Shown piece by piece: positions 46,805-64,000 of a stretch of 64,000 bases of DNA (position 1 is its first letter; each line of letters begins with the position of its first letter). Source of the DNA: an uncultured Celeribacter sp. (GTDB lineage: Bacteria > Pseudomonadota > Alphaproteobacteria > Rhodobacterales > Rhodobacteraceae); contig OY781536.2 of the NCBI GenBank assembly GCA_963676755.2, positions 261,640-325,639 of the forward strand, read 5' to 3'. Under the pieces are notes generated by a model. It did not search any database and was not told the DNA's origin. It was given only the letters and a program-made list of their open reading frames with translations. A program made the position numbers and the translations under genes.

Positions 46805-47758
46805 TTAGAACGGGCTGTCTTCGTAGTAGAAGTCCATCGCGTTGTCCTGTGTGACCAGAACAGAGCCGATTGTGAATGTGCCCGACACGGCCGCATTGGA
46901 GGTCAGACCGACAGCGGTCATCTCAATTGCCGTTGAAATCATGGACGGCGGATAGGTCACATCGGCAGGGATCATCGGGTCACCATCTGCAACCCGCTTG
47001 ATCATTTCCTTCATCCCCGCACCGCCGAGAACGAACTGGATATCATCGCGCCCCGCCGCCTCGATCGCCGCGAGTACACCGATGGCCATATCGTCATCAG
47101 AGGCCCAGACCGCGTCGATATGCGGGTATTTGGACAGGTAATCTTCCATAACAGTAAAGCTGTCATCACGGTTCCAGTTGCCATGCTCCATCGCCAGAAC
47201 ATTGATGCCGGAGCCTTCGATTGCCGCGGTGAACGCATCGACGCGTTCATTGTCAATCGTGGTCGGAATGCCGCGCAGCACGACAATGTCACCACCATCG
47301 GGCATCTGGGAAACCATAAATTCGCCGGAGACCCGTCCGAAGCCGCTATTGTCACCGGCGACATAGAGATCTTCAATGCCTGGCACCGACAGGCCACGGT
47401 CCACCACCGTGACCCAAGCGCCGGACTCGGCGACGGCCTGAACCGGCGGGGTCAGCGGGTCGGATTCAAAGGGCAGGACGACCAGAGCGTCGATATTGCG
47501 CACAGCGACCATGTCCTCGATATCGTTGACCTGTGTGCCTGGATCTGGAGCGGTGGCGAGGACAAAGTCGAGATTGGGATAGACCTCTTCGAGCCGCTCG
47601 ACGGTTTGCTTGGCATGAAAGTTCATCCCGCCAGCCCAGCCGTGAGTGGCGGCAGGAATGGACACGCCGATCACCTTCGTGTCCTGCTCTTGTGCATAGG
47701 CCGACGTTCCGATGAGAGTGGCCACTGTTGCGGCCATGATTTTGGCAGAAAGTTTCAT
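46805..47758 (-). CDS. Sugar ABC transporter substrate-binding protein (RbsB/XylF-like, periplasmic binding protein type 1)
   Basis: Signal peptide MKLSAKIMAATVATLIGTSAYA, followed by VIGVSIPAATHGWAGG. Length is 317 aa. Confidence 0.85.
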   Translation of the reverse strand: MKLSAKIMAATVATLIGTSAYAQEQDTKVIGVSIPAATHGWAGGMNFHAKQTVERLEEVYPNLDFVLATAPDPGTQVNDIEDMVAVRNIDALVVLPFESDPLTPPVQAVAESGAWVTVVDRGLSVPGIEDLYVAGDNSGFGRVSGEFMVSQMPDGGDIVVLRGIPTTIDNERVDAFTAAIEGSGINVLAMEHGNWNRDDSFTVMEDYLSKYPHIDAVWASDDDMAIGVLAAIEAAGRDDIQFVLGGAGMKEMIKRVADGDPMIPADVTYPPSMISTAIEMTAVGLTSNAAVSGTFTIGSVLVTQDNAMDFYYEDSPF

Positions 47759-47788
47759 TTTGCTCCTCCCTGAGCTTGGTTCCGACAG

Positions 47789-48817
47789 CTATTGAGCCGC
47801 CTTGCGTTCGCGCTGCAAGATAACAGCGAGAATGATGATAACCCCTTGGATCGCGCCGTTCAGATAGGGCGAAACAAAGTCGGTCAAATTCAGAATATTG
47901 TCGATCAGGCTGAGGATCAGCACACCGATCACAGTGCCCCAGACTCGCCCGAATCCGCCTTTGAGCACGGTGCCGCCGATGATAACGGCGGCGATGGCTT
48001 CCAGTTCCCAAAGCACGCCGGTGGAGGCGGAGGCGGATCCGAGACGCGGCACATACATGATGGTGGCGACCCCGACGAGCAGCCCGAGGGCCGCATAGGT
48101 CAACATTCGTGTGCGATTGACATTGACGTTGGAATAATGCGCGACGTGTTCATTGGAGCCGGTTGCGGCGCAATGGCGCCCGAAGGCCGTGCGCGACATG
48201 ATGATTTCTCCGACGATCACCACGATGGCAAAGACGATAATGGGCCAACTGATCCCGAAAATGCCGTCAAAGTAGACAGGCCGGTAAAAAGTGCGCAGCC
48301 CGAAATCCAGCGACAGGGTGCCCCCATCTGCCAGCCATGTGACGAGGCTGCGGTAGATGCCCATAGAACCAAGGGTGACGATGAAGGCTTCGATGCCCAA
48401 TGTCGTGATCAGAAAGCCGTTGAGCAGACCCGCAATCACACCGGCGACAAGCGCCACAGCCATGCCCAGCAGAATGATGGGCACGCCGACTCCCAAACTC
48501 GGCAGAGCGGCGTTCATGGTCAGGATCATAAGTCCGGCAATAAAAGCCGCCATAGAGCCAACCGAGAGGTCAAGCCCGCCTGCGGTGATGACAAAGGTCA
48601 TGCCAACGGCGATGATCCCGATAAAAGCAGAGCGGGCCAGCACATTGGTGATATTGGCCGCGCTGAGGAAGTTCGGGTTCATCATGGCCCCGATTGCGAT
48701 CAGCACGACCAGCGCCAGCACCGGTCCGAGCACGGACATGGAGGGCAGTTTGGCGCGGGTCTTTCCGGCTGGTGTTGAGGTCACATCAGTCATTTGGTCA
48801 AGCTCCTTGCGTCGCAA
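47789..48817 (-). CDS. Sugar ABC transporter permease (RbsC/XylH-like)
   Basis: 342 aa with about 10 TM segments. It shows typical branched/monosaccharide permease segments (GGLDLSVGS). Confidence 0.9.
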   Translation of the reverse strand: MRRKELDQMTDVTSTPAGKTRAKLPSMSVLGPVLALVVLIAIGAMMNPNFLSAANITNVLARSAFIGIIAVGMTFVITAGGLDLSVGSMAAFIAGLMILTMNAALPSLGVGVPIILLGMAVALVAGVIAGLLNGFLITTLGIEAFIVTLGSMGIYRSLVTWLADGGTLSLDFGLRTFYRPVYFDGIFGISWPIIVFAIVVIVGEIIMSRTAFGRHCAATGSNEHVAHYSNVNVNRTRMLTYAALGLLVGVATIMYVPRLGSASASTGVLWELEAIAAVIIGGTVLKGGFGRVWGTVIGVLILSLIDNILNLTDFVSPYLNGAIQGVIIILAVILQRERKAAQ

Positions 48818-50327
48818 AGACGGGGGATTGTTCGGACGTCGCGCTCAGCCCCATGGACAGGCGGACAATGGCGTCTTCGGTGATGGCTTCTTTGCTCACT
48901 TCTCCGCTGATCCGGCCCAGACGCATCACGAGAATCCGGTCTGCGAGGCCCATCAGTTCGGGCATCTCCGAAGAAATGACGATGATCGGCACGCCTTGGG
49001 CGGCCAGATCACGCAAGAAGGCGTAGATTTGTTGTTTCGTCCCGATGTCGATGCCACGGGTGGGTTCATCCACGATCAGGATGCGCGGTTCGGAAAGCAT
49101 GACTTTCGCCAGAAGCAGCTTTTGCTGGTTGCCGCCAGAAAGATTGCCGACCTTCACGTCACGGCGGCCTGCGCGGATATCGAATTCGCCAATGGCGTCA
49201 TCCAGTGCCTTTTCCTCGGCCTTTCGGTCAATGAAACGCGCACCGAACCTGTCCAGCGTTTGCAGGGTCAGGTTCTCACGCATTCCCCATCCCAAAAGAA
49301 GACCGCGCAGTTTGCGATCTTCTGTCAGGTAGCAAAGCCCGTGGCGCTGTGCATCTGCGGGGGTGCGGATGTTAACGGTGTTACCAAAAATCGTGATCCG
49401 GTCCGCCGAGGCGGGCCGTAATCCGGCGAGGCCTTCCATCATCTCGGTGCGCCCCGCGCCGATCAACCCGCCCAGCCCCAGAATTTCGCCCGCACGGAGG
49501 TCAAAAGAGACGTTTTCGGAAAATCCCGGCACGGTGAGGTTCTGGACCGACAGCACCACCTCGCCGGTCCCGCCTTCGGGCTTGGCAGGGTAGAGATCGG
49601 AGACATCGCGGCCAACCATGCCTGTAGCCATGCCATCTTCGTCAATCTCGCTGGTCGGACCGGAATGGACCACACGCCCGTCGCGCATGATGGTCACGAT
49701 ATCGGAAATACCGGCGACTTCATCGAGCTTATGCGAAGTGAACAGGATTGCGGTTCCCTGTTCCCTGAGGGCACGAACCTGATCCATCAGAACGGCGGTT
49801 TCCCGCGTGGTCAGCACTGCTGTCGGCTCGTCCATAATCAGGACGCGCGCATCCCGCGACAGGGCCTTGGCGATCTCGACCATCTGCTTTTCCGAGTTGG
49901 ACAGAGAGGACACCGGCGCATCCGGGTCGACGGCGCATTTCACCCGTTCAAGATAGCTGCGTGTCAGTCGCCGCATCCGCGCTTTGTCAAGCAACGGGCC
50001 GCGCCGCAGTTCCCGCCCCAGAAAGATGTTCTGCTCGACCGTCAGTTGTTCAGCGAGGTTGAACTCCTGATGGATCATCACGACGCCCGCTGCCTCACCC
50101 TCATGCAGACTGTCAAACCGTACAGGCGTTCCGTCCAGCATCACGTTGCCGCTTGTGGCGGGCTGATAGCCGGAGAGGATTTTCATTGTCGTGGATTTCC
50201 CCGCCCCGTTCTCCCCGATCAAAGCGTGCACTTCTCCGGCCCTCAGGGACAGATCAATCTCGTGCAGCACCTCGATCGGGCCGAAGCTCTTACTGACGCC
50301 GGACAGGGCGAGAACAGGATGTGACAT
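48798..50327 (-). CDS. Sugar ABC transporter ATP-binding protein, double ATPase (RbsA/XylG-like)
   Basis: Walker A GENGAGKST, signature LSNSEKQMVEIA in the first half and LSGGNQQK in the second. I chose the ATG at 50327, which overlaps the upstream stop. The ORF-track start at 50648 is an extension. Confidence 0.9.
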   Translation of the reverse strand: MSHPVLALSGVSKSFGPIEVLHEIDLSLRAGEVHALIGENGAGKSTTMKILSGYQPATSGNVMLDGTPVRFDSLHEGEAAGVVMIHQEFNLAEQLTVEQNIFLGRELRRGPLLDKARMRRLTRSYLERVKCAVDPDAPVSSLSNSEKQMVEIAKALSRDARVLIMDEPTAVLTTRETAVLMDQVRALREQGTAILFTSHKLDEVAGISDIVTIMRDGRVVHSGPTSEIDEDGMATGMVGRDVSDLYPAKPEGGTGEVVLSVQNLTVPGFSENVSFDLRAGEILGLGGLIGAGRTEMMEGLAGLRPASADRITIFGNTVNIRTPADAQRHGLCYLTEDRKLRGLLLGWGMRENLTLQTLDRFGARFIDRKAEEKALDDAIGEFDIRAGRRDVKVGNLSGGNQQKLLLAKVMLSEPRILIVDEPTRGIDIGTKQQIYAFLRDLAAQGVPIIVISSEMPELMGLADRILVMRLGRISGEVSKEAITEDAIVRLSMGLSATSEQSPVFATQGA

Positions 50328-51466
50328 CAGAGCGTCACCCATGCCGCATCCTGCGCGGAGGAACTCACACAGGCGGAGATAAAGGCCATGCCCTCCAGTC
50401 CTGCCTCGATCCCAGGCAAGAGACCCATAGCGGTTGCTTTGTCGGTGCCATTCTGAACCGCGCGGATGGCCTCGGCGGCTTCGTTGTAAATCGTAGCAAA
50501 GCCTTCCAGATAGCCTTCGGGATGCCCTGCGGGGATGCGGCTGACCGCAGCGGCTGCGGCACCGGCGCCTGCACCATTTCTGGTGATCAGACGTTTGGGT
50601 TCTCCTTGCGGGGTGAACCAGAGGTAATTCGGGTCTTCCTGAGACCATTCTATCCCGCCCTTGCTCCCATAGACACGCAGCTTAAGCGCGTTCTCGTTGC
50701 CCGGCGCGACCTGAGACGACCAGAGCATCCCGCGCGCACCAGAGGCAAAGCGCAACAGCACATGGGCATTGTCATCAAGTGTGCGTCCGGCCCCGAAGGC
50801 TTGCATGTCTGCCGCCAGTTTTTCGACCGACAGACCCGTTACAAAACAGGCGAGGTTGTGGGCATGAGTGCCGATGTCACCGACCGATCCGCCCGCACCG
50901 GAGCGTTTCGGGTCGGTCCGCCATTCAGCTTGTTTGACGCCCTCTTTCTCAGCGGGGCTGGTGAGCCAGTCCTGCGGATATTCGACCTGAACAATGCGGA
51001 TATCGCCAAGATCACCGGCGTGCACCATATCGCGGGCCTGCCGGATCATCGGATAGCCCGTGTAGTTATGTGTCAGGATAAAAAGCGCGTCACTGTCAGC
51101 CACGGACCGCGCCAGATCCTGCGCGTCATCCAGCGTCGAGGTCAAAGGCTTGTCGCAAATTACATGGATGCCTTTTGCGAGAAAAGCCTTCGCGGCGGCC
51201 GCATGGACGTGGTTCGGGGTTACGATGCTGACCGCCTCAATCCCGTCTTCGCGTGCAGCTTCTGCCTCGGCCATCTCGGTGAATGATCCGTAACTGCGGT
51301 TGATGCCGAGCGCCCTGGCGCTGGCTTCGGATTTCTCCGGTGTCGAGGATAGCGCTCCGGCCACCAGTTCGAACCTGTCGTCGATCCGCGCGGCGATGCG
51401 ATGCACCCCGCCGATAAAGGCGTCATTTCCGCCGCCGATCATACCCAAACGAATACGTTTCATCAA
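50327..51466 (-). CDS. Gfo/Idh/MocA-family oxidoreductase
   Basis: The N-terminal Rossmann motif is MKRIRLGMIGGGNDAFIGGVHRIAA. Length is 379 aa. Confidence 0.9.
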   Translation of the reverse strand: MMKRIRLGMIGGGNDAFIGGVHRIAARIDDRFELVAGALSSTPEKSEASARALGINRSYGSFTEMAEAEAAREDGIEAVSIVTPNHVHAAAAKAFLAKGIHVICDKPLTSTLDDAQDLARSVADSDALFILTHNYTGYPMIRQARDMVHAGDLGDIRIVQVEYPQDWLTSPAEKEGVKQAEWRTDPKRSGAGGSVGDIGTHAHNLACFVTGLSVEKLAADMQAFGAGRTLDDNAHVLLRFASGARGMLWSSQVAPGNENALKLRVYGSKGGIEWSQEDPNYLWFTPQGEPKRLITRNGAGAGAAAAAVSRIPAGHPEGYLEGFATIYNEAAEAIRAVQNGTDKATAMGLLPGIEAGLEGMAFISACVSSSAQDAAWVTL

Positions 51467-52518
51467 TCGATCCCCAACATTTTACGATTTGCAGCCTCAT
51501 CCGTGCCGCCATCTGCGAAGTCATCAAATGCGCGTTCCGTGACGCGGATGATGTGGTCTTTCACAAATTGTGCCCCTTCGCGCGCACCGTCTTCGGGATG
51601 TTTGAGCGCACATTCCCATTCGACCACGGCCCAGCCGTCAAAATCATTGGCCGCCATTTTGGAGAAGACCGCGCCGAAATCCACCTGACCGTCGCCCAGA
51701 CTGCGGAACCGTCCTGCACGGTTGACCCAGGATTGATAGCCCGAATAGACACCTTGTCGCCCAGTCGGATTAAATTCCGCGTCTTTCACATGGAACATGC
51801 GGATGCGGTCTTTGTAGATGTCGATATTGTCGAGATAATCGAGGCACTGAAGCACATAGTGCGACGGGTCATAGAGCATACAGGCGCGGTCGTGATTTCC
51901 GGTGCGCTCAAGGAACATCTCGTAGGTGATCCCGTCATGAAGGTCTTCACCCGGATGGATCTCATAACAGACATCAACGCCACAATCTTCGGCATGGTCG
52001 AGAATGGGTAGCCAGCGCTTGGCCAGTTCCTCGAATGCGGTTTCGATCAGACCGGCAGGGCGCTGAGGCCACGGGTAGATATAGGGCCATGCCAAGGCGC
52101 CGGAGAATGTCGCATGTGCGCCGATGCCCATATTCTTGGAGGCAGACAAAGCTTTTTTGACCTGCTCGACCGCCCATGCCTGACGCGCCTTCGGATTGCC
52201 GCGCACTTCAGGAGCCGCGAAACCGTCAAACGCATCGTCGTAGGCGGGGTGGACGGCAACAAGCTGGCCTTGCAAATGGGTTGACAGTTCGGTGACCGTG
52301 ACACCGTTTTCGGCGGCCTGTCCCTTGAACTCGTCGCAATAGTCATTGCTTTCAGCGGCCTTGTCGAGGTCGATCAGACGCGCATCCCAACTGGGTACCT
52401 GAACTCCTTTATAGCCGCAGTCTGCCGCCCATTTGGTGATGCTGTCCCACGAGTTGAACGGCGCTTCGTCACCTGCAAATTGCGCCAGAAACAGCGCGGG
52501 TCCTTGAATGGTCTTCAC
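51463..52518 (-). CDS. Sugar phosphate isomerase/epimerase (xylose-isomerase-like TIM barrel)
   Basis: 351 aa. The segments YEIHPGEDL and HVKDAEF are typical of AP_endonuc_2/TIM-barrel proteins. Start and stop overlap the neighbouring genes. Confidence 0.8.
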   Translation of the reverse strand: MKTIQGPALFLAQFAGDEAPFNSWDSITKWAADCGYKGVQVPSWDARLIDLDKAAESNDYCDEFKGQAAENGVTVTELSTHLQGQLVAVHPAYDDAFDGFAAPEVRGNPKARQAWAVEQVKKALSASKNMGIGAHATFSGALAWPYIYPWPQRPAGLIETAFEELAKRWLPILDHAEDCGVDVCYEIHPGEDLHDGITYEMFLERTGNHDRACMLYDPSHYVLQCLDYLDNIDIYKDRIRMFHVKDAEFNPTGRQGVYSGYQSWVNRAGRFRSLGDGQVDFGAVFSKMAANDFDGWAVVEWECALKHPEDGAREGAQFVKDHIIRVTERAFDDFADGGTDEAANRKMLGID

Positions 52519-52546
52519 GGTTTTTCTCCTCCCTGTTCAACCGCGT

Positions 52547-53842
52547 TCAAACGAAACGGTTCACAATATTTTCCAAGATTTCCTGACGACCGGACTGCGG
52601 TTGCGGATTGATCCCGTCGGCTTCGACCTGTGCGGCGATGGTGCCCAGATCGCTTTTGAGAAGTGCCTGACCTTTCGGCGTCTCCCATCCGGCGTAGCGT
52701 TCGTTGCGCATTGCTTCTAGCGTGCCGTCCTCCAGCATGGCCGCTGCCGCTTTGAACCCGCGGGCGCAGACATCCATTGCACCGGCATGTCCGGCAATCA
52801 GATCCACCGGATCAAGAGACTGACGGCGCAGTTTGGCGTCGAAATTGGTCCCGCCGGTGGTGAATCCGCCTGCCTTGAGAACCTCGTAATAGGCCAAGGC
52901 CACTTCCGGCACGTTATTGGGGAACTGGTCGGTGTCCCATCCGGACTGATAGTCATTGCGGTTCATGTCGATGGAGCCGAATATTCCGAGAGCAGAGGCC
53001 AGCGCCAGTTCGTGTTCAAAAGAATGACCGGCAAGGATGGCGTGGCCTTGCTCGATGTTCATCTGCACTTCGTTTTCAAGTCCGAACTCCTTGAGGAAAC
53101 CGTAGACAGTGGCCACGTCGAAATCATACTGGTGCTTGGTCGGTTCCTGCGGCTTGGGCTCGACAAGGATCGCCCCTTTGAAGCCGATCTTGTGTTTATA
53201 CTCGACCGCCATTTGCAAGAGCCGTCCGGCTTGTTGGCGTTCGCGCTTCAGGTCGGTGTTGAGCAGGGTTTCATAGCCCTCGCGCCCGCCCCAGAGCACA
53301 TAGTTCTGGCCGCCCATCTTATGCGTGGCATCCATACAGTTTTTCACCGTGGCGGCTGACCATGCGAAAATTTCGGGGTCGGGGTTGGTGGCCGCGCCCG
53401 CCATGAAGCGACGGTTGGAAAAGAGGTTGGCAGTTCCCCAAAGCAGCTTGGTCTTGCTGCTTTCCATTTTCTCGCTGAGGTAGTCGACCATCTCTTCGAA
53501 GTTACGCTTGCTCTCGGCAAAGCTGTCGCCTTCGGGGCGGATGTCGGCATCATGCCAACAGAAGAACGGCACATTGAGCAGGTCGAACATCTCGAAGGCA
53601 ACATCGGCTTTCATCTTTGCCAGATCCATCGTGTTGCCAAACCATGGCCGTTCAAAGGTCTGCCCGCCAAAGGGATCATCTCCGGGCCAGGCAAATGAAT
53701 GCCAATAGGCGACGGCAAAACGCAGATGATCTTCCATGCGCTTGCCCATGACGATCTCGTCAGGATTGTAATGATGGAAAGCCAACCCCTCGGATTGCGG
53801 GTCATAGCGAAGCGGGGAGATGTCTTTGAAAAAATCGGTCAT
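52547..53842 (-). CDS. xylA: Xylose isomerase
   Basis: [50 protein letters not shown] and [14 protein letters not shown] and [16 protein letters not shown] are classic class-II XylA segments. Length is 431 aa. Confidence 0.95.
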
Positions 53843-53858
53843 CGGGGCACTTTCCTGA

Positions 53859-54896
53859 TCAGTTCATTTCGGTTGGAAGGTTGTCGCGCACATAGATCGC
53901 CGGAATGAGCTCCGGCGAAGGCGGCGGCGGCATTTCATCTGCGATGGCTTGCAGCAGTGCCAAAGCGCGGTTCATTTCAATTTCGGGACGTTGGTCGAGC
54001 GCGACATCAACGAAACCGTCTTGGAGCGCATCGCAGACAGTTGTGGAAAGTTCATGGACGATGCAGAAAACTGCGCCTTTCGGATCACGGTCGCGCACGG
54101 CGCGCACCAGACCTTCGTTGCCCGCGCCAGCATTGTAGATTGCCGTGACGGGGGAGGCGTCGGACAGATTCTGATGCAGTGTTTTCCGCATCAGTTCGGC
54201 TTGGTCCTTGGTCTCGATGACTTCGGAAATCCCGATATTGGGAAAGTCGGCTTCGATCACTTCGCGAAACCCGCTAATCCGGTCGCTGTGGTCGCGAAGA
54301 TCAAGAGACCCCGCCGTCAGAACAACATGGCCAGCCTTTCCGCCATGGGAGAACCCGATCAGGCGACCGGCGGTGCGGCCAGCCTTGACGTTATCAATCC
54401 CGATATAATGGTCGCGGTTGTTCTCTGGCACATCTGAGACGAGCGTGACAATTTTCGTCCCTTCGGCCCGCAGAGCAGTGAGGGAGGTGGAGAGTTTGTC
54501 CAGACCCTGTCCGACAAAGGCGACACCATCATAGGTCTTTCCGATCAAACCGGAGAGAGCCTCCTCCAAAGCGCGTGCGTCAAAGGCCTCGAATTCGATC
54601 ACATCCAGCACCACTCCGGCGGTCTTGAGATGCAATGCGGCGGCTGCAAGCTGGTCATGCATCCGGCCGAAAAAGTCGTGGGATTTGTCGGGCAGAACGA
54701 AGGCGAGGTGGTGGTGCCGGTTTTTAGAGAGCTTGGCTGCGGCAATGTTGCGGACATAGCCAAGCTGTGCGACGGCATCATTGACTTTGCGCACCGATTT
54801 TTCGGCCACATTGCCGCGCCGGTTCACGACACGATCCGCAGTCGCATAGCTGACGCCCGCCAAAGCGGCGACATCATGAAGTGTCGGGTTTTTCAT
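53859..54896 (-). CDS. LacI-family transcriptional regulator
   Basis: The HTH is [34 protein letters not shown], followed by a periplasmic-binding-like domain. I chose the ATG at 54896. Confidence 0.9.
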
Positions 54897-54941
54897 CTTT
54901 CCTCCCGTGCGCAGCACTCCTCCTACTGGCACGGGACTAGA

Positions 54942-55005
54942 ATTGACGCAAAAATGATATACGTCAATCATTTTTTGATATTCTGATTTATTACTTATAA
55001 ATCAG
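54942..55005. promoter_or_regulatory. Two inverted repeats upstream of the lacI-family gene
   Basis: ATTGACG-N13-CGTCAAT lies at 54942-54968 and CTGATTTAT-N5-ATAAATCAG at 54983-55005, in an AT-rich intergenic stretch. Neither matches the classic LacI/GalR operator consensus, so their role is uncertain. Confidence 0.2.
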
Positions 55006-55117: not shown

Positions 55118-55906
55118 TCAGAAGTCGAGGGAATTGCGTTCGCGATAGCCTTGCAGGAAGCTGGCGAGGCGCGGGTCGGTCGGGTTGTTGAACACGTCAC
55201 GCGGCGAGCCGGTGGCGACGATCTCTCCGCGTTCCATAAACACCACCCTGTCGGCCACATGCGCGGCAAATCCCATTTCATGGGTGACCACGACCATGGT
55301 CATGCCTTCGGCGGCAAGCTGTTTCATCACACCGAGCACCTCGCCCACCAGTTCCGGATCAAGCGCGCTGGTCGGTTCGTCGAACAGCATGATGCGCGGC
55401 TCCATAGCGATGGCTCGCGCGATGGCGACCCGTTGCTGTTGTCCGCCGGAGAGGTGGCTGGGATGGTTGTTTTCCTTGTCCGCCAGACCGACCTTGGCCA
55501 GCGCCTCGCGGGCACGCGCCTGCGCCTCGGGGCGTTTCAGCCCGCGGACGCGCTCAAGCCCTTCGGCCACGTTCTGCAAGGCGGTCATATGTGGCCAGAG
55601 GTTGAATTGCTGGAACACCATGCCGATCTCGCGGCGCATCTCGCGCAACCGGTTCGCGGCCATCACTTTGCCACCGGGGCTGTCATAACCGATCAACTGG
55701 TCATCAATCCGCACCTCGCCGCTGTCGTAGAGTTCGAGCACATTGATACAGCGCAGCAATGTGGACTTGCCCGAACCGGACGGGCCGATCAGGCAGGTCA
55801 CCTTGCCCGGCGGGATGTCGAGACTGACGTCCTTCAGAGCCTGAAACGGGCCATAGAATTTGTTGACATTGCGCAAATGGGCGGAGGCGGCGGTCTGGCT
55901 GGTCAT
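55118..55906 (-). CDS. Polar amino acid ABC transporter ATP-binding protein (HisP/GlnQ type)
   Basis: Walker [10 protein letters not shown], signature [14 protein letters not shown] and Walker [12 protein letters not shown]. Length is 262 aa. Confidence 0.9.
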
Positions 55907-55909
55907 CTC

Positions 55910-56569
55910 TCAGCTCCGATCAAGAAGATAATGGGTGAAGCGGCGCTCCAGACGGCGTCCGAAGCGCGAGATCAATTCGACGAAGCCCCAGAAGAACAGT
56001 GCAAGGATCAGGATCGGGGCGACAAACGCGAAGGTTTCGCTCATCATTGTCTGGGTCTGGAACATGATCTCGGGGACGGTGATCATCGACAAGATCACGG
56101 TTTCCTTCGTCAGGATGATCGCGAAATTCACCAGTGCGGGCAGGGCAGAGACCATCATGACCGGCACCATGATGCGGGTGATGATCGTCGTGTTGCGAAA
56201 GCCGATGGCGCGGGCGGCTTCGACCTGACCGACGGGCACGGCATCAAAACCCGCACGCAGGATTTCGGTGAAATAGGCGCTGCCGTAAATCGTCAATCCG
56301 AGGATACCTGCGGGCAGGGCGTCCAGACGCAACCCGATGAGCGGGCCGCCGTAATACAGGACAAAAAGCTGCACGAGGAAGGGCGTGCCACGGATGAATT
56401 CGACATAGGCGCGGATCGGATAGCGCAGGAAACCGGGGCCGAACCGGCGGGCGATCTCGATCATGAAGCCGAGCACAAGGCCGAGGAGTGTCCCCAGTGC
56501 CCAACTCAGAATGGTGTATCCGAACCCCGTGAGCAGATCGGGGCCGTAGCGTTGGAGTATCTCCGTCAT
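55910..56569 (-). CDS. Amino acid ABC transporter permease (HisM/HisQ type)
   Basis: 219 aa with a His/Glu/Gln/Arg/opine-family permease pattern (FIRGTPFLVQLF). Confidence 0.9.
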   Translation of the reverse strand: MTEILQRYGPDLLTGFGYTILSWALGTLLGLVLGFMIEIARRFGPGFLRYPIRAYVEFIRGTPFLVQLFVLYYGGPLIGLRLDALPAGILGLTIYGSAYFTEILRAGFDAVPVGQVEAARAIGFRNTTIITRIMVPVMMVSALPALVNFAIILTKETVILSMITVPEIMFQTQTMMSETFAFVAPILILALFFWGFVELISRFGRRLERRFTHYLLDRS

Positions 56570-57222
56570 CAGACCATAAGCCTCCGTTCAAGCATGCGTC
56601 CGGCCTGTGCAATCACAAGGTTGATCACGAGGTAGATAAAGGCGGCGGCGAGGTAGATTTCGAGGGGGCGATAGGTGGCCGCGGCGATGGACTGGCTCAT
56701 GCGTGTGATTTCCACAATGCCGACCACGGTGACAAGGGAGCTGGCTTTGACCAGCAGAATCAATTCGTTGACGATGGCGGGCAAGCCGATCTTGAGCGCC
56801 TGTGGTAGCAGAATACGGATCCAGACATCGCGGGGCGCCATGCCGATAGCAGCGGCGGCTTCCGCTTGCCCTTGAGGAATGGCATTGAGAGACCCGCGCA
56901 GCACTTCCGACAAATAGGCGGCGGCGCAAAGCCCGACGGTCAGGACCGCTGCGGCCAGTGCGGGCACATTGATGCCGATCACAGGCAGCAGGTAATAGGC
57001 CGCGAGAAGCTGGATCAACAGCGGGACACCGCGGAAAAAGCTGACATAAAGCGCCGCACTCCGGCGCATCCAGCGCTTGTTCGACAGGGCGGCAGCACAG
57101 ATCACAGCGCCGAGAATAAGCCCCTCGATACAGCCGAGGACCGAGATCAGGAGCGTGTAGCGCGCCGAGCCGAGCAACACCGGAAAATTTTCCACGATCG
57201 TCTGGAATGAAAACATTGCCAT
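56569..57222 (-). CDS. Amino acid ABC transporter permease (HisM/HisQ type)
   Basis: 217 aa with the FFRGVPLLIQLL motif. The stop and start abut the neighbouring permease gene. Confidence 0.9.
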   Translation of the reverse strand: MAMFSFQTIVENFPVLLGSARYTLLISVLGCIEGLILGAVICAAALSNKRWMRRSAALYVSFFRGVPLLIQLLAAYYLLPVIGINVPALAAAVLTVGLCAAAYLSEVLRGSLNAIPQGQAEAAAAIGMAPRDVWIRILLPQALKIGLPAIVNELILLVKASSLVTVVGIVEITRMSQSIAAATYRPLEIYLAAAFIYLVINLVIAQAGRMLERRLMV

Positions 57223-57282
57223 GCCTTGAGAATGGGGAGGGCGTTGCGCGGGCGAGCGGACCCCGCCCGCGCGGTTTCGATC

Positions 57283-58095
57283 TTAGAGTTCGGGCATTGT
57301 CGCCGGAAGTTCGGTGGCCATGCCAAACCATTTTTCTTGCATGGCAGCCATACGGCCATCGGCCTTGATCGCGGCAAGAGCTTCGTTCACAGCAGCAGCC
57401 AGCGTGTCACCATCCCCCTTGCGGGCTACAAAGCCGAAATAGGTAGGGGTGCCGAAGGGAGGGATGACAACGGCGAAGTTGTCGGGACGTGTAATGGCAA
57501 GGTAGCTGAGAAGCGGTGCAGAGCCTGCAACCGCGTCAAGACGGCCAGTCATCAGATCGGCATAGGCCTCGTCCGGTGTGCCGTAACCTTTAACGGTAAT
57601 GCCGCCGATTTTCTCGCCATAGGCCTCAAGCTGTTTCTCTTGCGCCGTGCCTTTTTGCACGCCGACCGTCATGCCTTTGGCATCTTCCGGCCCTGTCATC
57701 TTGCCATCCTTACGCTGCACAAAGGCAACGGTCGCATCCGCGATCGGCAGGGTAAAGCTGTAGCGTTCGGCGCGTTCGGCGGTCATGGTCACAGGGGCCA
57801 GAACAAAGTCGAATTTGTTGACTTCGAGACCCGGCAGGATCGAGGTCCAGGGCAAGTCCAGATATTCCGGCGTGACGCCCAGTTCCTTGGCGATCTCGTC
57901 AAACAGGTCGCGGTCGAAACCGACATATTCACCGTTTTCGAGCATGTCGAACGGCGCGTAATGCATCTCTGTCGCGACGACAATTTTGCCTGCGGCTTTG
58001 ATGTCGGCCAGATCATCTGCCAGAACCGCTGAAGTGGTGAAAGCAAGTGCGCCCAGACCAAGAAGCGCGGATTTCACAGTTGTGTAAAAGGTCAT
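57283..58095 (-). CDS. Amino acid ABC transporter substrate-binding protein (family 3)
   Basis: A signal peptide followed by IKAAGKIVVATEMHYAPFDM and GFDRDLFDEIAKELG, typical of SBP_bac_3. I chose the ATG at 58095. Confidence 0.9.
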   Translation of the reverse strand: MTFYTTVKSALLGLGALAFTTSAVLADDLADIKAAGKIVVATEMHYAPFDMLENGEYVGFDRDLFDEIAKELGVTPEYLDLPWTSILPGLEVNKFDFVLAPVTMTAERAERYSFTLPIADATVAFVQRKDGKMTGPEDAKGMTVGVQKGTAQEKQLEAYGEKIGGITVKGYGTPDEAYADLMTGRLDAVAGSAPLLSYLAITRPDNFAVVIPPFGTPTYFGFVARKGDGDTLAAAVNEALAAIKADGRMAAMQEKWFGMATELPATMPEL

Positions 58096-58191
58096 ATTGT
58101 CTCTCCTGTTGGCGGGGCTTTTCATTCCGGCACCGCGCCCCTTGGGTGCCGGACAGTCGGACCAGCGCCGGTTTTTCCGGCGCCGGAATGT

Positions 58192-58743
58192 CTATGTCAG
58201 TTGACGCACGATAACGGCAATCACGGGACCGGAGGCGACTTGGCCGCTCAGGTCATGATTTTGATCTGAAACTATAATTTCGTCGGGATGTAAGACGAGA
58301 TCGCCGATTTTAACCGGTTGATGGCGCGTGACAAGGGCAACTGCACAATTTGGCACAGGTTGACCTGCCGCAAGCATCTCGACCTGATGTGTGCAGACCC
58401 CGCGTCGCGTCATGACGTTGAAGTCCAGAACCGGACCTGCACTCAGACGCGCATGAAGCGCGGCCTCTCCGGGAAAGGAGAAAGGCGGCGTGCGATTGTC
58501 CAATGTGACCGACCCGCCTTGCGCGAAATCGAGGTGCAGACCCGTGCCGGACAAAACCGTCAACGTGCGGTCGATGCCCGCAAAGGAGGAGAACCCGCCC
58601 TCGGTCGCAACTTCGGCCATACTGATCCGCCACTGCATATCCTCGAAACCCGCCCCTGCGGGGAAGGCGGCGATTTCCCATGTCAGGCCACCGCCATTTT
58701 TCCATGGCTGTGCGGTGAGCTCGCTGCGGCGGATCAGTTTCAT
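58192..58743 (-). CDS. hutD: HutD-family protein
   Basis: [25 protein letters not shown]...WRISMAEV...[13 protein letters not shown] matches the HutD (Ves-like) family pattern. It lies directly after hutU with overlapping codons. Confidence 0.8.
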
Positions 58744-60434
58744 TTCAGAATCCCCGGCAAGTTGAGGTCATGCTCAATCGCGCAATCGCGGGCAATCTCA
58801 TAGCCTGCATCGGCGTGGCGCATGACGCCCGTGGCTGGATCGTTCCAAAGCACCCGCGCAATGCGGCGGTCTGCATCTTCGGAGCCGTCACAACAGATGA
58901 CCATGCCCGAGTGCTGCGAAAAGCCCATGCCGACGCCGCCACCGTGATGCAACGAGACCCAAGTCGCACCCGAGGCGGTGTTGAGCAGAGCATTCAGCAA
59001 AGGCCAGTCGGAGACAGCATCGGAGCCATCCTTCATGGCTTCGGTCTCGCGGTTGGGGGATGCGACCGAGCCGCTGTCGAGATGATCGCGCCCGATGACG
59101 ACCGGTGCTTTCAATTCGCCGTTGCGGACCATTTCGTTGATCGCAAGCCCCGCCTTGTGGCGCTCACCCAACCCGATCCACATGATCCGTGCGGGCAGGC
59201 CCTGAAAGTCGATCCGCTCGCGGGCCATATCCAGCCAGCGATGCAGATGGGCATTTTCAGGGAACAGCTCTTTCATGCGCTGGTCGGTTTTGTAGATGTC
59301 CTCGGGATCGCCCGACAGCGCAGCCCAGCGGAACGGCCCGACGCCGCGACAGAACAGCGGACGGATATAGGCCGGCACGAAACCCGGAAACGCAAAAGCA
59401 TTTTCCAGCCCTTCTTCCTGCGCCATCTGGCGAATGTTGTTGCCGTAATCGAGCGTTGGCACACCCGCGTTCCAGAAACCGACCATTGCCTCAACATGAT
59501 CGCGCATCGAAGCCCGTGCGGCGCTCGCGACTGCGGCGGGATTGCTTTCCTGCTCTGCGCGCCATTGCGCAACGGTCCAGCCTTTGGGCAGGTAGCCGTG
59601 GAAGGGATCATGTGCCGAAGTCTGGTCGGTCACAATGTCAGGCCGCCCGTTGGGAAGCGTTTCGCCAGCTTGCATCCGGCGCAGGATTTCGGGGAAAACA
59701 TCTGCGGCATTGCCGATCAAGGCGACAGATTTGGCCTCGCCCGCTTTCGTCCAGCGATCAATCATCGCCAGCGCTTCGTCAAGCGAATGGGTTTTCTCGT
59801 CGCAATAGCGGGTGCGGATGCGAAAATCGGCGCGGGTCTCGTCACATTCGACTGCGAGACAGCAGGCCCCGGCCATCACAGCGGCCAGCGGCTGTGCGCC
59901 ACCCATGCCGCCCAGACCACCGGTCAGAATCCAGCGCCCTTTCAGATCACCATCGTAATGCTGGCGACCGGCTTCGGCAAAGGTCTCGTAAGTGCCCTGC
60001 ACAATCCCTTGCGCGCCGATGTAAATCCAAGACCCTGCGGTCATCTGGCCATACATCGCCAGACCCTTTTTATCGAGTTCGTTGAAATGCTCCCAGTTCG
60101 CCCAGTGCGGCACAAGGTTGGAATTGGCAATCAGAACGCGCGGCGCATCCTTGTGTGTCTGGAACACACCGACCGGCTTGCCCGATTGCACCAAAAGCGT
60201 TTGGTCCTCGTCAAGTTCGCGTAGCGCGGTGCAAATCCGGTCGAAATCGTCCCAAGTGCGTGCGGCACGGCCAATCCCGCCATAGACCACCAGTTCATGC
60301 GGGTTCTCGGCGACATCGGGGTGCAGGTTGTTCATCAGCATCCGCAGCGGCGCTTCGGTCAGCCAGCTCTTGGCCGTCATCTCGGTGCCGGTTGCGGGGA
60401 AGATGTCGCGGGTGTTGTGACGCGGATTGTTCAT
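58740..60434 (-). CDS. hutU: Urocanate hydratase
   Basis: 564 aa. [31 protein letters not shown] and HHGGGVGMG are classic urocanase segments. Confidence 0.95.
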
Positions 60435-60455: not shown

Positions 60456-61598
60456 TCAGGCGAGCAATCTGCCCGCGATGATGTTGCGTTGAATTTCAGA
60501 GGAGCCTTCATAAATGCGCATGATCCGCAGATCGCGAAGGTGGCGCTCCAGCGGGAAATCCCGCGTGAAGCCGTATCCGCCGTGGATTTGCAGCGCATTG
60601 TCGGCAATGCGTCCCGCGGTTTCCGAGGCAAACAGCTTGGCTTTGGATGCGGCGGTGGTGAACCGCTCTCCGGCCTGACGTTGTCGTGCCGCCTCATGGC
60701 CCAACAACTCGGCGGCGGACAGCTCTGTCGCCATATCGGCTAACATCCACTGAATACCCTGCCGGTCAGACAGTGGTGCGCCGCCGATCATGCGTGATTT
60801 GGCCCAGTCTTTTGCTGCACGCAATGCAGCACGCGCGATGCCCACGGCCATCGCGGCGACCTCGGCGCGGCCATTATCCAGCACTTTCATAGCAGTGCGA
60901 AAGCCGGTTCCTTCTGCGCCGAGCCGGTTTGTGTCGGGCAGCACAATGTCGATGTCCAGTTCCCAGACATGACCACCGCGCAGCCCCATCGTTTGCTCGA
61001 CCCGACCGGGCACCAGGCCGGGTGTGCCTTTTTCCACCACAAACGCGGATATTCCGCGATGCCCTGCGTCCGGATTTGTGACGCAGTAAAGCACAATGAA
61101 ATCAGCCACACCGCCATTCGAAATGAAACATTTCTTGCCTTTGATGTGCCAGTTCTCGCCGTCACGCACCGCTTTGGTGCGCATATCGGCAGGGTCCGAC
61201 CCTGCATTCGGCTCGGTCAGGGCGAATGCGCCGAGCATCCGACCTTCGGCTGCGGCGGGTAGAAAACGCTCTCTCAGAGCGTCATCGCCGCCAAGGAGCA
61301 AGCTGTCTGTGGCGAGGTAATGCGCCGTCAGGGCCGAAACCGTCGAGCCGCAGCCTCCGGCCACAATCGCCACCGCTTCGAAGAGCGCATGGGCCGAAAT
61401 GTCAGCCCCGCCCCATCGTTCGGGCAGGTTCGCCCCCATCATTCCGGTTTCTGCCAATGCGGCCAGTTGTTCATGGACAAAGGCGCCTGATGCGTCGGTC
61501 GCTGCCGCTTGAGGAGCAAGAACCTCATTTGCAAAGCGTTCAAGAATGTCGAGGAACTGGCGTTCTTCAGAGGTGAGAAGGTGGTCGAATGTGTTCAT
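60456..61598 (-). CDS. Acyl-CoA dehydrogenase family protein
   Basis: 380 aa. ALTEPNAGSD is present, and the C-terminal DLRIMRIYEGSSEIQRNIIAGRLL is a typical ACAD signature. Confidence 0.9.
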   Translation of the reverse strand: MNTFDHLLTSEERQFLDILERFANEVLAPQAAATDASGAFVHEQLAALAETGMMGANLPERWGGADISAHALFEAVAIVAGGCGSTVSALTAHYLATDSLLLGGDDALRERFLPAAAEGRMLGAFALTEPNAGSDPADMRTKAVRDGENWHIKGKKCFISNGGVADFIVLYCVTNPDAGHRGISAFVVEKGTPGLVPGRVEQTMGLRGGHVWELDIDIVLPDTNRLGAEGTGFRTAMKVLDNGRAEVAAMAVGIARAALRAAKDWAKSRMIGGAPLSDRQGIQWMLADMATELSAAELLGHEAARQRQAGERFTTAASKAKLFASETAGRIADNALQIHGGYGFTRDFPLERHLRDLRIMRIYEGSSEIQRNIIAGRLLA

Positions 61599-62788
61599 TT
61601 GTCAGCTTCTTTCACAACACCGGCTGAGATGAGTTGCGCGATTTGCGCCTCCGTTAGTCCGGCCTCTTGTAGAATGGCGCGGGTCTCGCCACCCAGTGAG
61701 GGGGCTCCGTTTTCGGCCAAATGGGCTTTGCCATCAAAGCGGATGGGTTGCCCCACGACCGGAGATTTGCCCAGCCGGTGATGGGGCAAATCCCGAACCA
61801 GTGCGCGTGCTTGGGCATGGTCTGATGCCAGTTGCTCCGCAAGGGTCATGATCGGGGCCGTCGGCACACGGGCCTCACTCAGTTTTTCTACAACTGTCGA
61901 GGTCGGGTGGAGGGAGGTCCAGTCTTCGATCATGGCGCGCACTGCGGGTTCATTTTGCGTGCGGATCTCGTCTGTAGAAAATCGCGGATCGGTAGCAGCT
62001 TCGGGAACGCCGATCACGTCGCACAGGGATTTGAACTGGCGATCTCCGAGAACGGCAATTATGGCCTGTCCGTCTTTGGTTCTGAATGCCCCGAATGGTG
62101 TGGACAAAGGGTGGCGGTTCCCGACGCGCTCTATTGCGGTGTCCGAATACATATGGATCGCGTGGCTGGTTGGCAGCATCGCCACCAGACTGTCCAGCAT
62201 TGCCACGTCCAGCGTGGCGCCTTGTCCGGAGCGTTTTTGTCCGATCAGCGCCGCCAGTATTGCAATGACGGCATACAGTCCCGCCGCGATGTCGCCCAAA
62301 GCTTCGCCGACTTTCAGCGGAGCGCCACCTTCTTCGCCGGTTGCGTCCATCCAGCCGGACATGGCTTGGGCCACAATGTCAAAGGCTGGCAGTTGTGCCT
62401 CGGGGCTATCCTGACCGAAACCCGAGATCGAACAATAGACAAGCTCTGGCTTCTGGGCGCGTAACGCGTCTGCGCCGAGCCCAAGTCGCTTCGCAACACC
62501 GGGTCGGAAATTTTCGACCACGACATCGCATTGGCTGGCCAGTTGCTGTGCAAGAGATTGGCCTTCGGGCGCTTTGAGGTCGATGACAACCGAGTTTTTC
62601 CCACGATTTGTCAGTGTGAATAGAGCGGATTCTCCATCCCGAAACGGGCCGATATGACGATATTCATCGCCGTGAGGTGGCTCGATCTTGATGATTTCTG
62701 CGCCCAGATCCGCCAGAAGCGCCGTGGCGAACGGTCCGGACAAGACGCGTGTCAGATCGAGAATGCGTATTCCTTCCAGCGGTTTCAT
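61595..62788 (-). CDS. Family III CoA-transferase (CaiB/BaiF family)
   Basis: [38 protein letters not shown] is the typical N-terminus. Length is 397 aa. Confidence 0.9.
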   Translation of the reverse strand: MKPLEGIRILDLTRVLSGPFATALLADLGAEIIKIEPPHGDEYRHIGPFRDGESALFTLTNRGKNSVVIDLKAPEGQSLAQQLASQCDVVVENFRPGVAKRLGLGADALRAQKPELVYCSISGFGQDSPEAQLPAFDIVAQAMSGWMDATGEEGGAPLKVGEALGDIAAGLYAVIAILAALIGQKRSGQGATLDVAMLDSLVAMLPTSHAIHMYSDTAIERVGNRHPLSTPFGAFRTKDGQAIIAVLGDRQFKSLCDVIGVPEAATDPRFSTDEIRTQNEPAVRAMIEDWTSLHPTSTVVEKLSEARVPTAPIMTLAEQLASDHAQARALVRDLPHHRLGKSPVVGQPIRFDGKAHLAENGAPSLGGETRAILQEAGLTEAQIAQLISAGVVKEADK

Positions 62789-63590
62789 CTCGTCAGCTCC
62801 GGAGCGAGGGCTTCAAGGGCGGTCAGGATTTCGGCGAGATAGGGGCGCAGGCGTGCGGCCTTTTCTGCGCTGATCTCCCAAGGCGGGGCCTCGGCAGTCA
62901 GGTGGGTGGACTGGGCCAGTTCCATCTGGATGGCATGGACGCCTGTCTCGGGCTGGCCATAGTGGCGCGTGGTCCAGCCGCCTTTGAACCGCCCGTTCAC
63001 GACATGGGTGAACTCGTGCGCGCGGGCGCAAACCTCTGCGGTGACAGCTTCGATTTGCGGAGCGCAACTGGTGCCATTTGCCGTGCCGATGTTGAGGTCC
63101 GGCAGCTTTCCATCGAAGAGATAGGGAATATGCGAGCGGATCGAGTGACAGTCATAGAGGATCGCCACACCGTGCCGTGCGCGCACCCGTTCGATCTCGG
63201 CCCGCAGGGCGGCATGATAAGGGTTGTGAAACTGCACAAGACGCGCTTCGACTTCAGTCGCATCAGGTTCCTCGGCCCAGATCGGCACCCCGTCGAAATC
63301 GGTCAGAGGCACAAGGCCCGTCGTGTTCTGCCCGGGGTAGAGGCTTTCATTTTCCGGTCCGCGATTGGCGTCGATCACATAGCGGTGGAAGGTGGCGCGC
63401 ACGGTGGTCGCAATCGGGAGCAGCCCGTCATACAGGTGATGGATATTCCAGTCCGTATCCGCCAAGGCACGCCCGCGTTCATTCAGCTTGGCTCGAACCG
63501 TGTCAGGGACATAAGTGCCCGTATGCGGAAGGCCCAGAATGACAGGGCTGTCGCCTTGAGTAACCTCAACGGGAGCGGGGATAGTGCGGC

Positions 63591-63594
<4 letters not shown>
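62785..63594 (-). CDS. hutG: N-formylglutamate amidohydrolase
   Basis: About 269 aa. [14 protein letters not shown] and [12 protein letters not shown] are FGase-family patterns. I chose the ATG at 63594, which overlaps the hutH stop. Confidence 0.8.

Positions 63595-64000
<406 letters not shown>

Follow-up and report, generated by a model that had tools for sequence, protein, structure and literature searches.

Between hutG and hutU of an uncultured Celeribacter sp. lies a pair of genes that probably serves the urocanate/histidine (Hut) pathway as an accessory feeder module, oxidizing imidazole propionate (dihydrourocanate) to urocanate. The pair encodes a family III CoA-transferase of 397 amino acids (61595–62788, minus strand) and an acyl-CoA dehydrogenase (ACAD) of 380 (60456–61598, minus strand), and it sits in a 64,000-nucleotide stretch of contig OY781536.2, which we refer to as the window. 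This reading is anchored in gene identity, catalytic residues, translational coupling, and a conserved linkage to hutU, importers, and electron transfer flavoprotein (ETF) genes; from these we infer the substrate, the CoA donor, the direction of the reaction, and its regulation.

In the scheme we propose, imported imidazole propionate would be converted to imidazolepropionyl-CoA by the transferase, a putative imidazole propionate/urocanoyl-CoA CoA-transferase. Succinyl- or acetyl-CoA would prime the reaction, and urocanoyl-CoA would serve as the later donor. The ACAD, a putative imidazolepropionyl-CoA dehydrogenase, would then remove the alpha and beta hydrogens to yield urocanoyl-CoA, with electrons passing through ETF and ETF:quinone oxidoreductase (ETF-QO) to quinone. 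By handing CoA to the next imidazole propionate, the transferase would free urocanate, which the adjacent HutU would hydrate and HutI, HutF, and HutG would carry onward to glutamate.

Coupling of the pair to urocanase

Genomic coupling of the pair to urocanase is conserved across lineages, and takes at least five gene orders in Alpha- and Gammaproteobacteria. Transferase and dehydrogenase are the only conserved partners. That no hydratase, thiolase, or ligase travels with them leaves the minimum needed to convert a saturated acid to its 2-enoate, the task performed by CaiB/CaiA, which interconvert gamma-butyrobetaine and crotonobetaine as CoA esters.

The most telling result of the survey comes from Pseudomonas. 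Almost every genome in our sample of the genus carries an NCS1 permease immediately after hutU, an arrangement that presumably corresponds to hutU-hutTu. HutTu (PA5099) is described in the literature as a urocanate transporter. Eleven genomes hold a second NCS1 copy, and in all four of these that were checked a second unit, hutU2-CoA-transferase-ACAD-NCS1-2, exists besides the canonical hutU-NCS1; a species that lacks the pair has the single hutU-NCS1 only. In a genome named as Pseudomonas nitroreducens by 99% matches, a GntR gene is followed by hutU-CoA-transferase-ACAD-NCS1. The same order recurs in Pseudomonas umsongensis and in a P. nitroreducens-like metagenome contig, where the unit adjoins hutF, hutC, hutD, and hutH. 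The two hydratases are 95–97% identical, whereas NCS1-2 is only 75–76% identical to NCS1-1; for the copies inside a single genome the figures are 97% and 76%. Conservation of hutU2 implies that its substrate is likewise urocanate, and divergence of the permease suggests that a different compound is imported.

Providencia presents a further illustration of how the module can be equipped. Its operon (locus L123) reads hutU-CoA-transferase-ACAD-NCS1-ETFβ-ETFα-ETF-QO, followed by a GntR regulator, and the ETF-QO is of the canonical quinone-binding type (PF21162 and PF05187). Providencia is not otherwise known to have a respiratory ETF system, and the module there brings its own electron route from ACAD to quinone. 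More broadly, a phylum sample of 400 genomes returned six matches to the pair outside the family of the window (Rhodobacteraceae), five of them within a few kilobases of hutU or hutH in further arrangements, the P. nitroreducens unit among them. In Caballeronia choica the pair has no hut genes in its vicinity, and the NCS1 permease beside it is 68% identical to that of Pseudomonas. In an alphaproteobacterial genome of another family, a gene for a Rieske ring-hydroxylating oxygenase alpha subunit (L109, 6026–7144) stands between hutH and a LysR-regulated pair, an observation of interest given the hydroxylase route reported for imidazolylpropionate (see below).

Within the family, one genome was surveyed for each of 400 genera. 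An ACAD orthologue at 51–89% identity was found in 18 of these genera and hutU in 215 (54%). All 18 pair-bearing genomes have hutU, including those in which the pair is unlinked to hut genes, a co-occurrence for which relatedness makes a formal test unsafe. Layouts were counted over 21 fetched loci (the 18 genera and three metagenome or isolate contigs) plus the window. In 14 loci, comprising that of the window genome and 13 others from Paracoccaceae-type genera, the pair lies directly upstream of hutU, after hutG or hutH. These embedded loci are monophyletic in the ACAD tree with support of 99, and the other layouts sit in other sub-clades. One of the fourteen, G340, carries HutC beside CoA-transferase-ACAD-hutU2-SBP-permease-permease-ATPase (SBP, substrate-binding protein), with a separate canonical hutI-hutH-hutG-hutU on another contig. 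At two other loci hutI-hutH-hutG-hutU is followed by hutC and a LysR gene and then by CoA-transferase-ACAD-DctPQM, a TRAP transporter, whose DctP shares 71% identity with the one found after hutU in an operon lacking the pair. Where the pair stands apart from hut genes, a divergent LysR-sized open reading frame (ORF) lies beside it at three of five loci, one of them checked by Pfam.

Another arrangement occurs in G145 (L107), where a LysR gene precedes a hutU-like paralogue, an aminotransferase, and then the pair, here at 50% identity. This genome has a normal hutU and no detectable hutH. It also holds two hutU-like paralogues at 41% identity (L107 3882–5579 and G145:C1:1813824–1815398). The paralogue in L107, which adjoins the class-III aminotransferase gene and the pair, scores closest to the S-methyl-thiourocanate hydratase model, below its cut-off, and the locus may serve a urocanate analogue by a parallel route.

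The orthologues themselves form a compact, distinct group. ACAD identity exceeds 50% inside the group and reaches at most 46% to other ACADs. Against 1.84 billion representatives clustered at 50% identity, for example, only one full-length cluster (73%) and a few fragments exceeded 50%, the rest being at 46% or less. Thirty orthologues from the fetched loci make a single clade relative to generic ACADs (SH-aLRT 100). A larger protein collection contains many orthologues at 70–99% identity, with source names that include Celeribacter, Rhodovulum, Thioclava, Gemmobacter, Paracoccus, Pararhodobacter, and Pseudorhodobacter; the matches at 98–99% suggest a Celeribacter-like origin for the window. 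A peptide-pattern scan of genome contigs, which missed close orthologues, gave Caballeronia and Variovorax as the only sources above 50% among the matches listed. Type strains with the pair include Rhodovulum sulfidophilum, Paracoccus sanguinis, Pseudomonas nitroreducens, and Providencia spp., and some databases label the ACAD orthologues "3-sulfinopropanoyl-CoA desulfinase."

Closer to home, the pair has been lost. In the nearest relative of the window genome, G022, hutU is 99% identical and the locus otherwise collinear at 95–99% protein identity. Between the intact hutG and hutU (L002 7860–8130), however, only ~18 nt from the start of the transferase gene remain, joined to the final ~170 nt of the ACAD gene. 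Relative to window positions 60456–62788 the deletion measures 2.15 kb, and the scar carries a further 4-nt deletion. The pair was thus present in the common ancestor with G022 and later lost, which marks it as dispensable and accessory rather than as unrelated to the hut locus; the G022 strain amounts to a natural knockout. The original prediction had named absence of the pair from the hut loci of close relatives as grounds for abandoning the idea. Such absence is literally what the genus displays, but the scar in the nearest relative tells of loss. Elsewhere hutU directly follows hutG in the congeners G005 and G009. The same holds, with no remnant of the pair, for seven of eight pair-less hut loci of related genera (hutU follows hutH in two); in the eighth the contig stops inside hutG.

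The whole hut locus of the window genome is itself much nearer to that of another genus (G156, L090; hutU 95%, hutF 88%, hutC 79%) than to those of the congeners G005 and G009 (L003 and L004), with which hutU is 86–87% identical, hutF 48–49%, and hutC 30–32%, and from which the gene order differs. This pattern suggests either whole-locus horizontal transfer or two types of hut locus in the genus.

Two enzymes in a complete hut locus

Both enzymes look active, judging from their retained catalytic residues. The transferase matches PF02515 over its full length (1–366 of 366, 416 bits, E 1.8e-124). Its Asp166, within a GEALGDIAAG motif, is invariant in 29 orthologues, and we take it, by motif rather than by structural superposition, to be equivalent to the catalytic Asp169 of Frc/CaiB, which forms the acyl-aspartyl anhydride. 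The ACAD has N-terminal, middle, and C-terminal domains (PF02771, PF02770, PF00441), all above cut-off, and keeps the catalytic glutamate base, Glu364, in the C-terminal YEG motif (RIYEGSSEIQR); this residue presumably corresponds to Glu376 of the MCAD type. With three domains and a catalytic Glu, the protein is best regarded as a true dehydrogenase rather than a desulfinase-type variant.

The closest solved structures, at about 40% identity, are generic short-chain ACADs (E 1e-88) and, for the transferase, SUGCT/YfdE-type enzymes. Among curated models, the best equivalog for the ACAD is AcrC, an acryloyl-CoA reductase (357.8 bits against a cut-off of 640), and the 3-sulfinopropanoyl-CoA desulfinase model gives 244.5 bits against 600. 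The succinate-glutarate CoA-transferase model yields 322 against 750 and formyl-CoA transferase 253 against 504. Of the carnitine models, CaiB (PRK03525) gives 138.4 against 413 and CaiA (PRK03354) 145.5 against 540. Scores below cut-off led us to reject CaiA/CaiB, AcrC, 3-sulfinopropanoyl-CoA desulfinase, succinate-glutarate CoA-transferase, SUGCT with glutaryl-CoA dehydrogenase, and Frc. Formate, the product of HutG, was rejected as a transferase substrate because an ACAD has no role with formyl-CoA, and an imidazolyl-lactate route because it would need a dehydratase rather than an ACAD.

Fourteen ACAD positions hold residues that are at least 90% conserved across the 30 orthologues and seldom shared by a set of 123 other ACADs: N57, L58, S88, D98, G103, D138, F167, G209, H210, T235, R307, L350, R361, and S366. 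Three of them fall within segment 88–103 and two flank the catalytic Glu, regions that contribute to the acyl pocket in ACAD structures. These residues are a lead to the substrate pocket and not evidence about it. Electron acceptors for the ACAD are present in the window genome, which has two etfBA loci and one ETF-QO.

On the minus strand the gene order is hutH-hutG-CoA-transferase-ACAD-hutU-hutD, followed by an ABC importer down to 55118, as judged from ORFs together with Pfam and NCBIfam. The hutH gene, for histidine ammonia-lyase (63591–64000+; TIGR01225/PF00221), is represented in the window by its C-terminal part and continues past the end. In L001, the window locus with fetched flanking DNA of the same genome, the full gene encodes 506 amino acids (7231–8751; TIGR01225, 681 bits against a cut-off of 539). 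It is followed by hutG, for N-formylglutamate deformylase (62785–63594; TIGR02017, 357.5 against 278.75), and, beyond the pair, by hutU, for urocanate hydratase (58740–60434; TIGR01228, 934.5 against 375), and hutD (58192–58743; PF05962, 150 bits). Downstream come a periplasmic binding protein (SBP_bac_3) of a polar-amino-acid-type importer (57283–58125; PF00497, under all NCBIfam cut-offs), two permeases (56569–57222 and 55910–56569; both PF00528), and an ATPase as the final gene of the unit (55118–55906; PF00005), all on the minus strand. Outside the window, hutI lies farther upstream in the same orientation, with hutF and hutC pointing divergently away. The pair is thereby surrounded by a complete five-step Hut locus, in which hutH, hutU, hutI, hutF, hutG, and hutC each exceed their equivalog cut-offs and hutD is assigned by Pfam.

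ATGA stop/start overlaps join hutH to hutG (63594–63591), hutG to the transferase gene (62788–62785), and the transferase gene to the ACAD gene (61598–61595). A 21-nt spacer with an AAAGGA ribosome-binding site then separates the ACAD stop from the hutU ATG. The gene order, overlaps, and 21-nt gap of the original prediction thus proved correct in every coordinate when checked against ORFs, profiles, and sequence. Its claim that the pair belongs to the hut transcription unit is favored by the comparative evidence as well as by the ATGA coupling, although co-transcription in the window is itself judged solely from the overlaps and the short spacer.

Promoter and terminator scans of the locus returned noise-level matches. 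One near-consensus TGTA-N2-TACA site resembling a HutC operator, TGTATGCACA, occurs at the divergent start of hutI and hutF (L001 9956–9965), and in a search with one mismatch allowed the count was not above chance. If the longest ORFs are taken, the hutI GTG and the hutF ATG stand just 12 nt apart (L001 9956–9996), and this near-palindrome falls within the annotated 5' end of hutI; the hutI model match begins at residue 47, so the real start may be further in. Adjoining the hut unit, window positions 46805–54971 hold a LacI-family regulator, two xylose-isomerase-like TIM-barrel genes, a Gfo/Idh/MocA oxidoreductase, and a sugar-type ABC importer. This region resembles an inositol or rare-sugar catabolic cluster and is unrelated to the pair.

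Substrate and direction of the reaction

That the pair is linked to hutU, and not to hutH, hutI, or hutG, speaks for a substrate related to urocanate. The original prediction allowed that other acyl substrates were equally possible, which in this light was too cautious. Three kinds of importer travel with the pair: TRAP, a paralogue of the NCS1 permease that adjoins hutU, and, in the window, the polar-amino-acid ABC system. The TRAP and NCS1 partners appear to be carboxylate or urocanate-type importers. Because HutU needs urocanate, whose dihydro form is imidazole propionate, and because of these importers, we rank imidazole propionate first. The earlier proposal that the pair turns a saturated imidazole acid into urocanate for HutU accordingly gains support from the recurrent hutU linkage, the importers, and the ETF and ETF-QO genes of Providencia.

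As for the ABC system, an SBP_bac_3 importer (window 55118–58125; L098 11785–14756) follows hutU, or hutU-hutD, in seven of the 11 pair-bearing embedded loci with enough flank and in none of 11 pair-less hut loci examined, these loci being phylogenetically non-independent. In G340 the orthologous binding protein, 58% identical to that of the window, travels with the pair and hutU2, not with hutIHGU. This importer might bring in the substrate of the pair rather than histidine.

Several points weigh against imidazole propionate oxidation. Neighboring genes are the sole guide to the substrate, and family assignment is silent on it, since neither protein attains any curated NCBIfam equivalog cut-off. 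The 14 embedded loci, forming one clade as they do, may count as a single event. Some 94% of the hutU-bearing genera sampled in the family lack the pair. No hut gene was found within 9 kb of it at five sampled family loci, or within 6–9 kb at one locus outside the family and two Burkholderiales loci. The module is dispensable, being deleted in G022 and absent from other same-genus genomes with orthologous hutU; none of 24 same-genus genomes has an ACAD orthologue, the best matches being about 40% identical. ETF together with ETF-QO could also power the reaction in the reductive direction, at least in principle. Our literature searches found no published description of the pair as a hut feeder module, nor biochemical, genetic, or expression data for any member. 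Finally, a different route is reported for imidazolylpropionate in Pseudomonas testosteroni, by hydroxylation to imidazolyl-lactate, then imidazolyl-pyruvate and histidine, without CoA esters. This bacterium reportedly grows on imidazolylpropionate and channels it to the histidine/urocanate pathway (Coote and Hassall 1973, Biochem J 132:409).

Three other explanations deserve consideration. The same chemistry could act on another urocanate-like acid, such as a ring-substituted dihydrourocanate (N-methyl, 2-thio, or S-methyl derivatives from hercynine or ergothioneine breakdown) or cis-urocanate as its CoA ester, with the product going to HutU or a paralogue. What is conserved would then be linkage to urocanase-family hydratases generally, as the G145 pair near its 41% hutU-like paralogue illustrates. 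Importers that vary among ABC, TRAP, and NCS1 types, the divergence of the NCS1 copy from the canonical one, and several LysR-regulated loci with nearby class-III aminotransferase or Rieske oxygenase genes would also fit. We consider this unlikely, however. The adjacent hydratase in the window, G340, Pseudomonas, and Providencia is a bona fide HutU (TIGR01228, 934–945 bits), far above the thiourocanate models. The 95–97% identity of hutU2 to the canonical Pseudomonas copy implies urocanate itself as the product, and among common natural acids only imidazole propionate lies a single desaturation away from urocanate. Even less plausible is that both proteins, ordinary members of very large families whose best matches, at about 40% identity, are transferases of the SUGCT-like kind and short-chain ACADs, form a generic short-chain or dicarboxylic acid pair that was inserted in a hut operon by chance and spread with it. 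That the embedded arrangement is monophyletic and easily lost, and that some orthologues lie away from hut genes, would suit such an origin. Against it, hut linkage turns up repeatedly, in distinct clades and with differing gene orders, regulators, and classes; hutU accompanies the pair in 18 of 18 genomes, unlinked cases included; duplicated Pseudomonas hutU-NCS1 units are built around it; and glutaryl-CoA dehydrogenases score worse than short-chain ACADs.

The module might instead run in reverse, as a CoA-dependent urocanate reductase that follows CaiA/FixABCX logic and uses urocanate as an electron sink, yielding imidazole propionate in parallel to HutU-dependent oxidation. Enoyl-CoA reductases are indeed the best curated matches of the ACAD (AcrC, 358 bits; CarC, E 4.6e-68), the ETF and ETF-QO of the Providencia operon recall FixABCX in the carnitine system, and a 2026 preprint describes reductive and oxidative histidine routes that are genetically co-integrated in some gut bacteria. 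Nonetheless, the module is frequent among lineages with an aerobic, respiratory way of life (Paracoccaceae-type genera, Pseudomonas, Variovorax, and Caballeronia). It resides in catabolic hut units under HutC or LysR control, and no anaerobic regulator was seen at the loci. A sink pathway gives no reason for duplicating hutU beside the pair, as in G340 and Pseudomonas, and the usual role of a canonical quinone-binding ETF-QO, as found in Providencia, is ETF oxidation. We therefore give reduction very little credence and retain the oxidation of imidazole propionate as our reading.

Related systems and implications

Known systems provide partial templates for this chemistry. One of them, CaiB/CaiA with FixABCX in Escherichia coli, likewise combines a family III transferase with an ACAD-family flavoenzyme to interconvert a saturated acid and its 2-enoate, recycling CoA and using ETF-type electrons; the Providencia pair, with its own ETF and ETF-QO, extends the likeness. 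The pair is nevertheless not orthologous to CaiB/CaiA, with scores under the cut-offs given above. Its presumed substrate is an imidazole acid, not a betaine, its presumed direction is oxidative, and it is embedded among hut genes; the CaiC ligase and CaiD hydratase of the carnitine system have no counterpart with it. The Act/Acd 3-sulfinopropionate system of Advenella and Variovorax also couples a family III CoA-transferase to an ACAD-fold enzyme, acting on a 3-substituted propionyl-CoA. By contrast, the ACAD of the pair falls well below the desulfinase cut-off (244.5 against 600 bits) and keeps the catalytic Glu of true dehydrogenases, and no sulfur-metabolism neighbors were seen. Clostridium sporogenes FldA/AcdA similarly pairs a CoA-transferase with an ACAD on aryl-acrylyl- and aryl-propionyl-CoA from aromatic amino acids (PMC13764928). 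That pathway is reductive and fermentative, starts from aryl-lactates, and relies on the FldBC dehydratase, none of which applies to the pair.

The urocanate reductase UrdA of Shewanella and gut bacteria handles the same two compounds, urocanate and imidazole propionate (PMC13764928, PMC11872695). UrdA is a periplasmic or secreted FAD/FMN enzyme of the fumarate-reductase type that reduces the free acid, in contrast to a pair that is cytoplasmic, CoA-dependent, ACAD-based, and presumably oxidative. The pair would be the catabolic counterpart of UrdA. A 2025 review calls imidazole propionate a non-metabolizable product of urocanate reduction (PMC11872695), and a 2026 review lists HutH and UrdA only (PMC13764928). 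For catabolism of imidazole propionate our literature searches found only its production by UrdA, and they found no mention of urocanoyl-CoA or imidazolepropionyl-CoA. The P. testosteroni route is a precedent for bacterial use of imidazolylpropionate that feeds the histidine/urocanate pathway, differing in that it is reported as free of CoA esters; no genes are known for it.

Insulin resistance and cardiovascular disease have both been linked to imidazole propionate, which microbes make from histidine. We lean slightly beyond even odds toward the broader conclusion that importer, transferase, ACAD (with ETF and ETF-QO), and HutU constitute a dedicated and widespread CoA-dependent bacterial pathway from imidazole propionate through urocanate to glutamate, with representatives among marine Paracoccaceae-type bacteria, Pseudomonas, and the gut genus Providencia. 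Testing this prediction should cost little, since pair-bearing type strains exist, as does a natural deletion variant. If it is true, the pair would supply the missing catabolic genes, the first for removal of imidazole propionate, and would open a CoA-dependent side entrance to a textbook pathway thought to be free of thioesters. Its genes would then also serve as markers for imidazole-propionate-consuming bacteria in gut and marine metagenomes.

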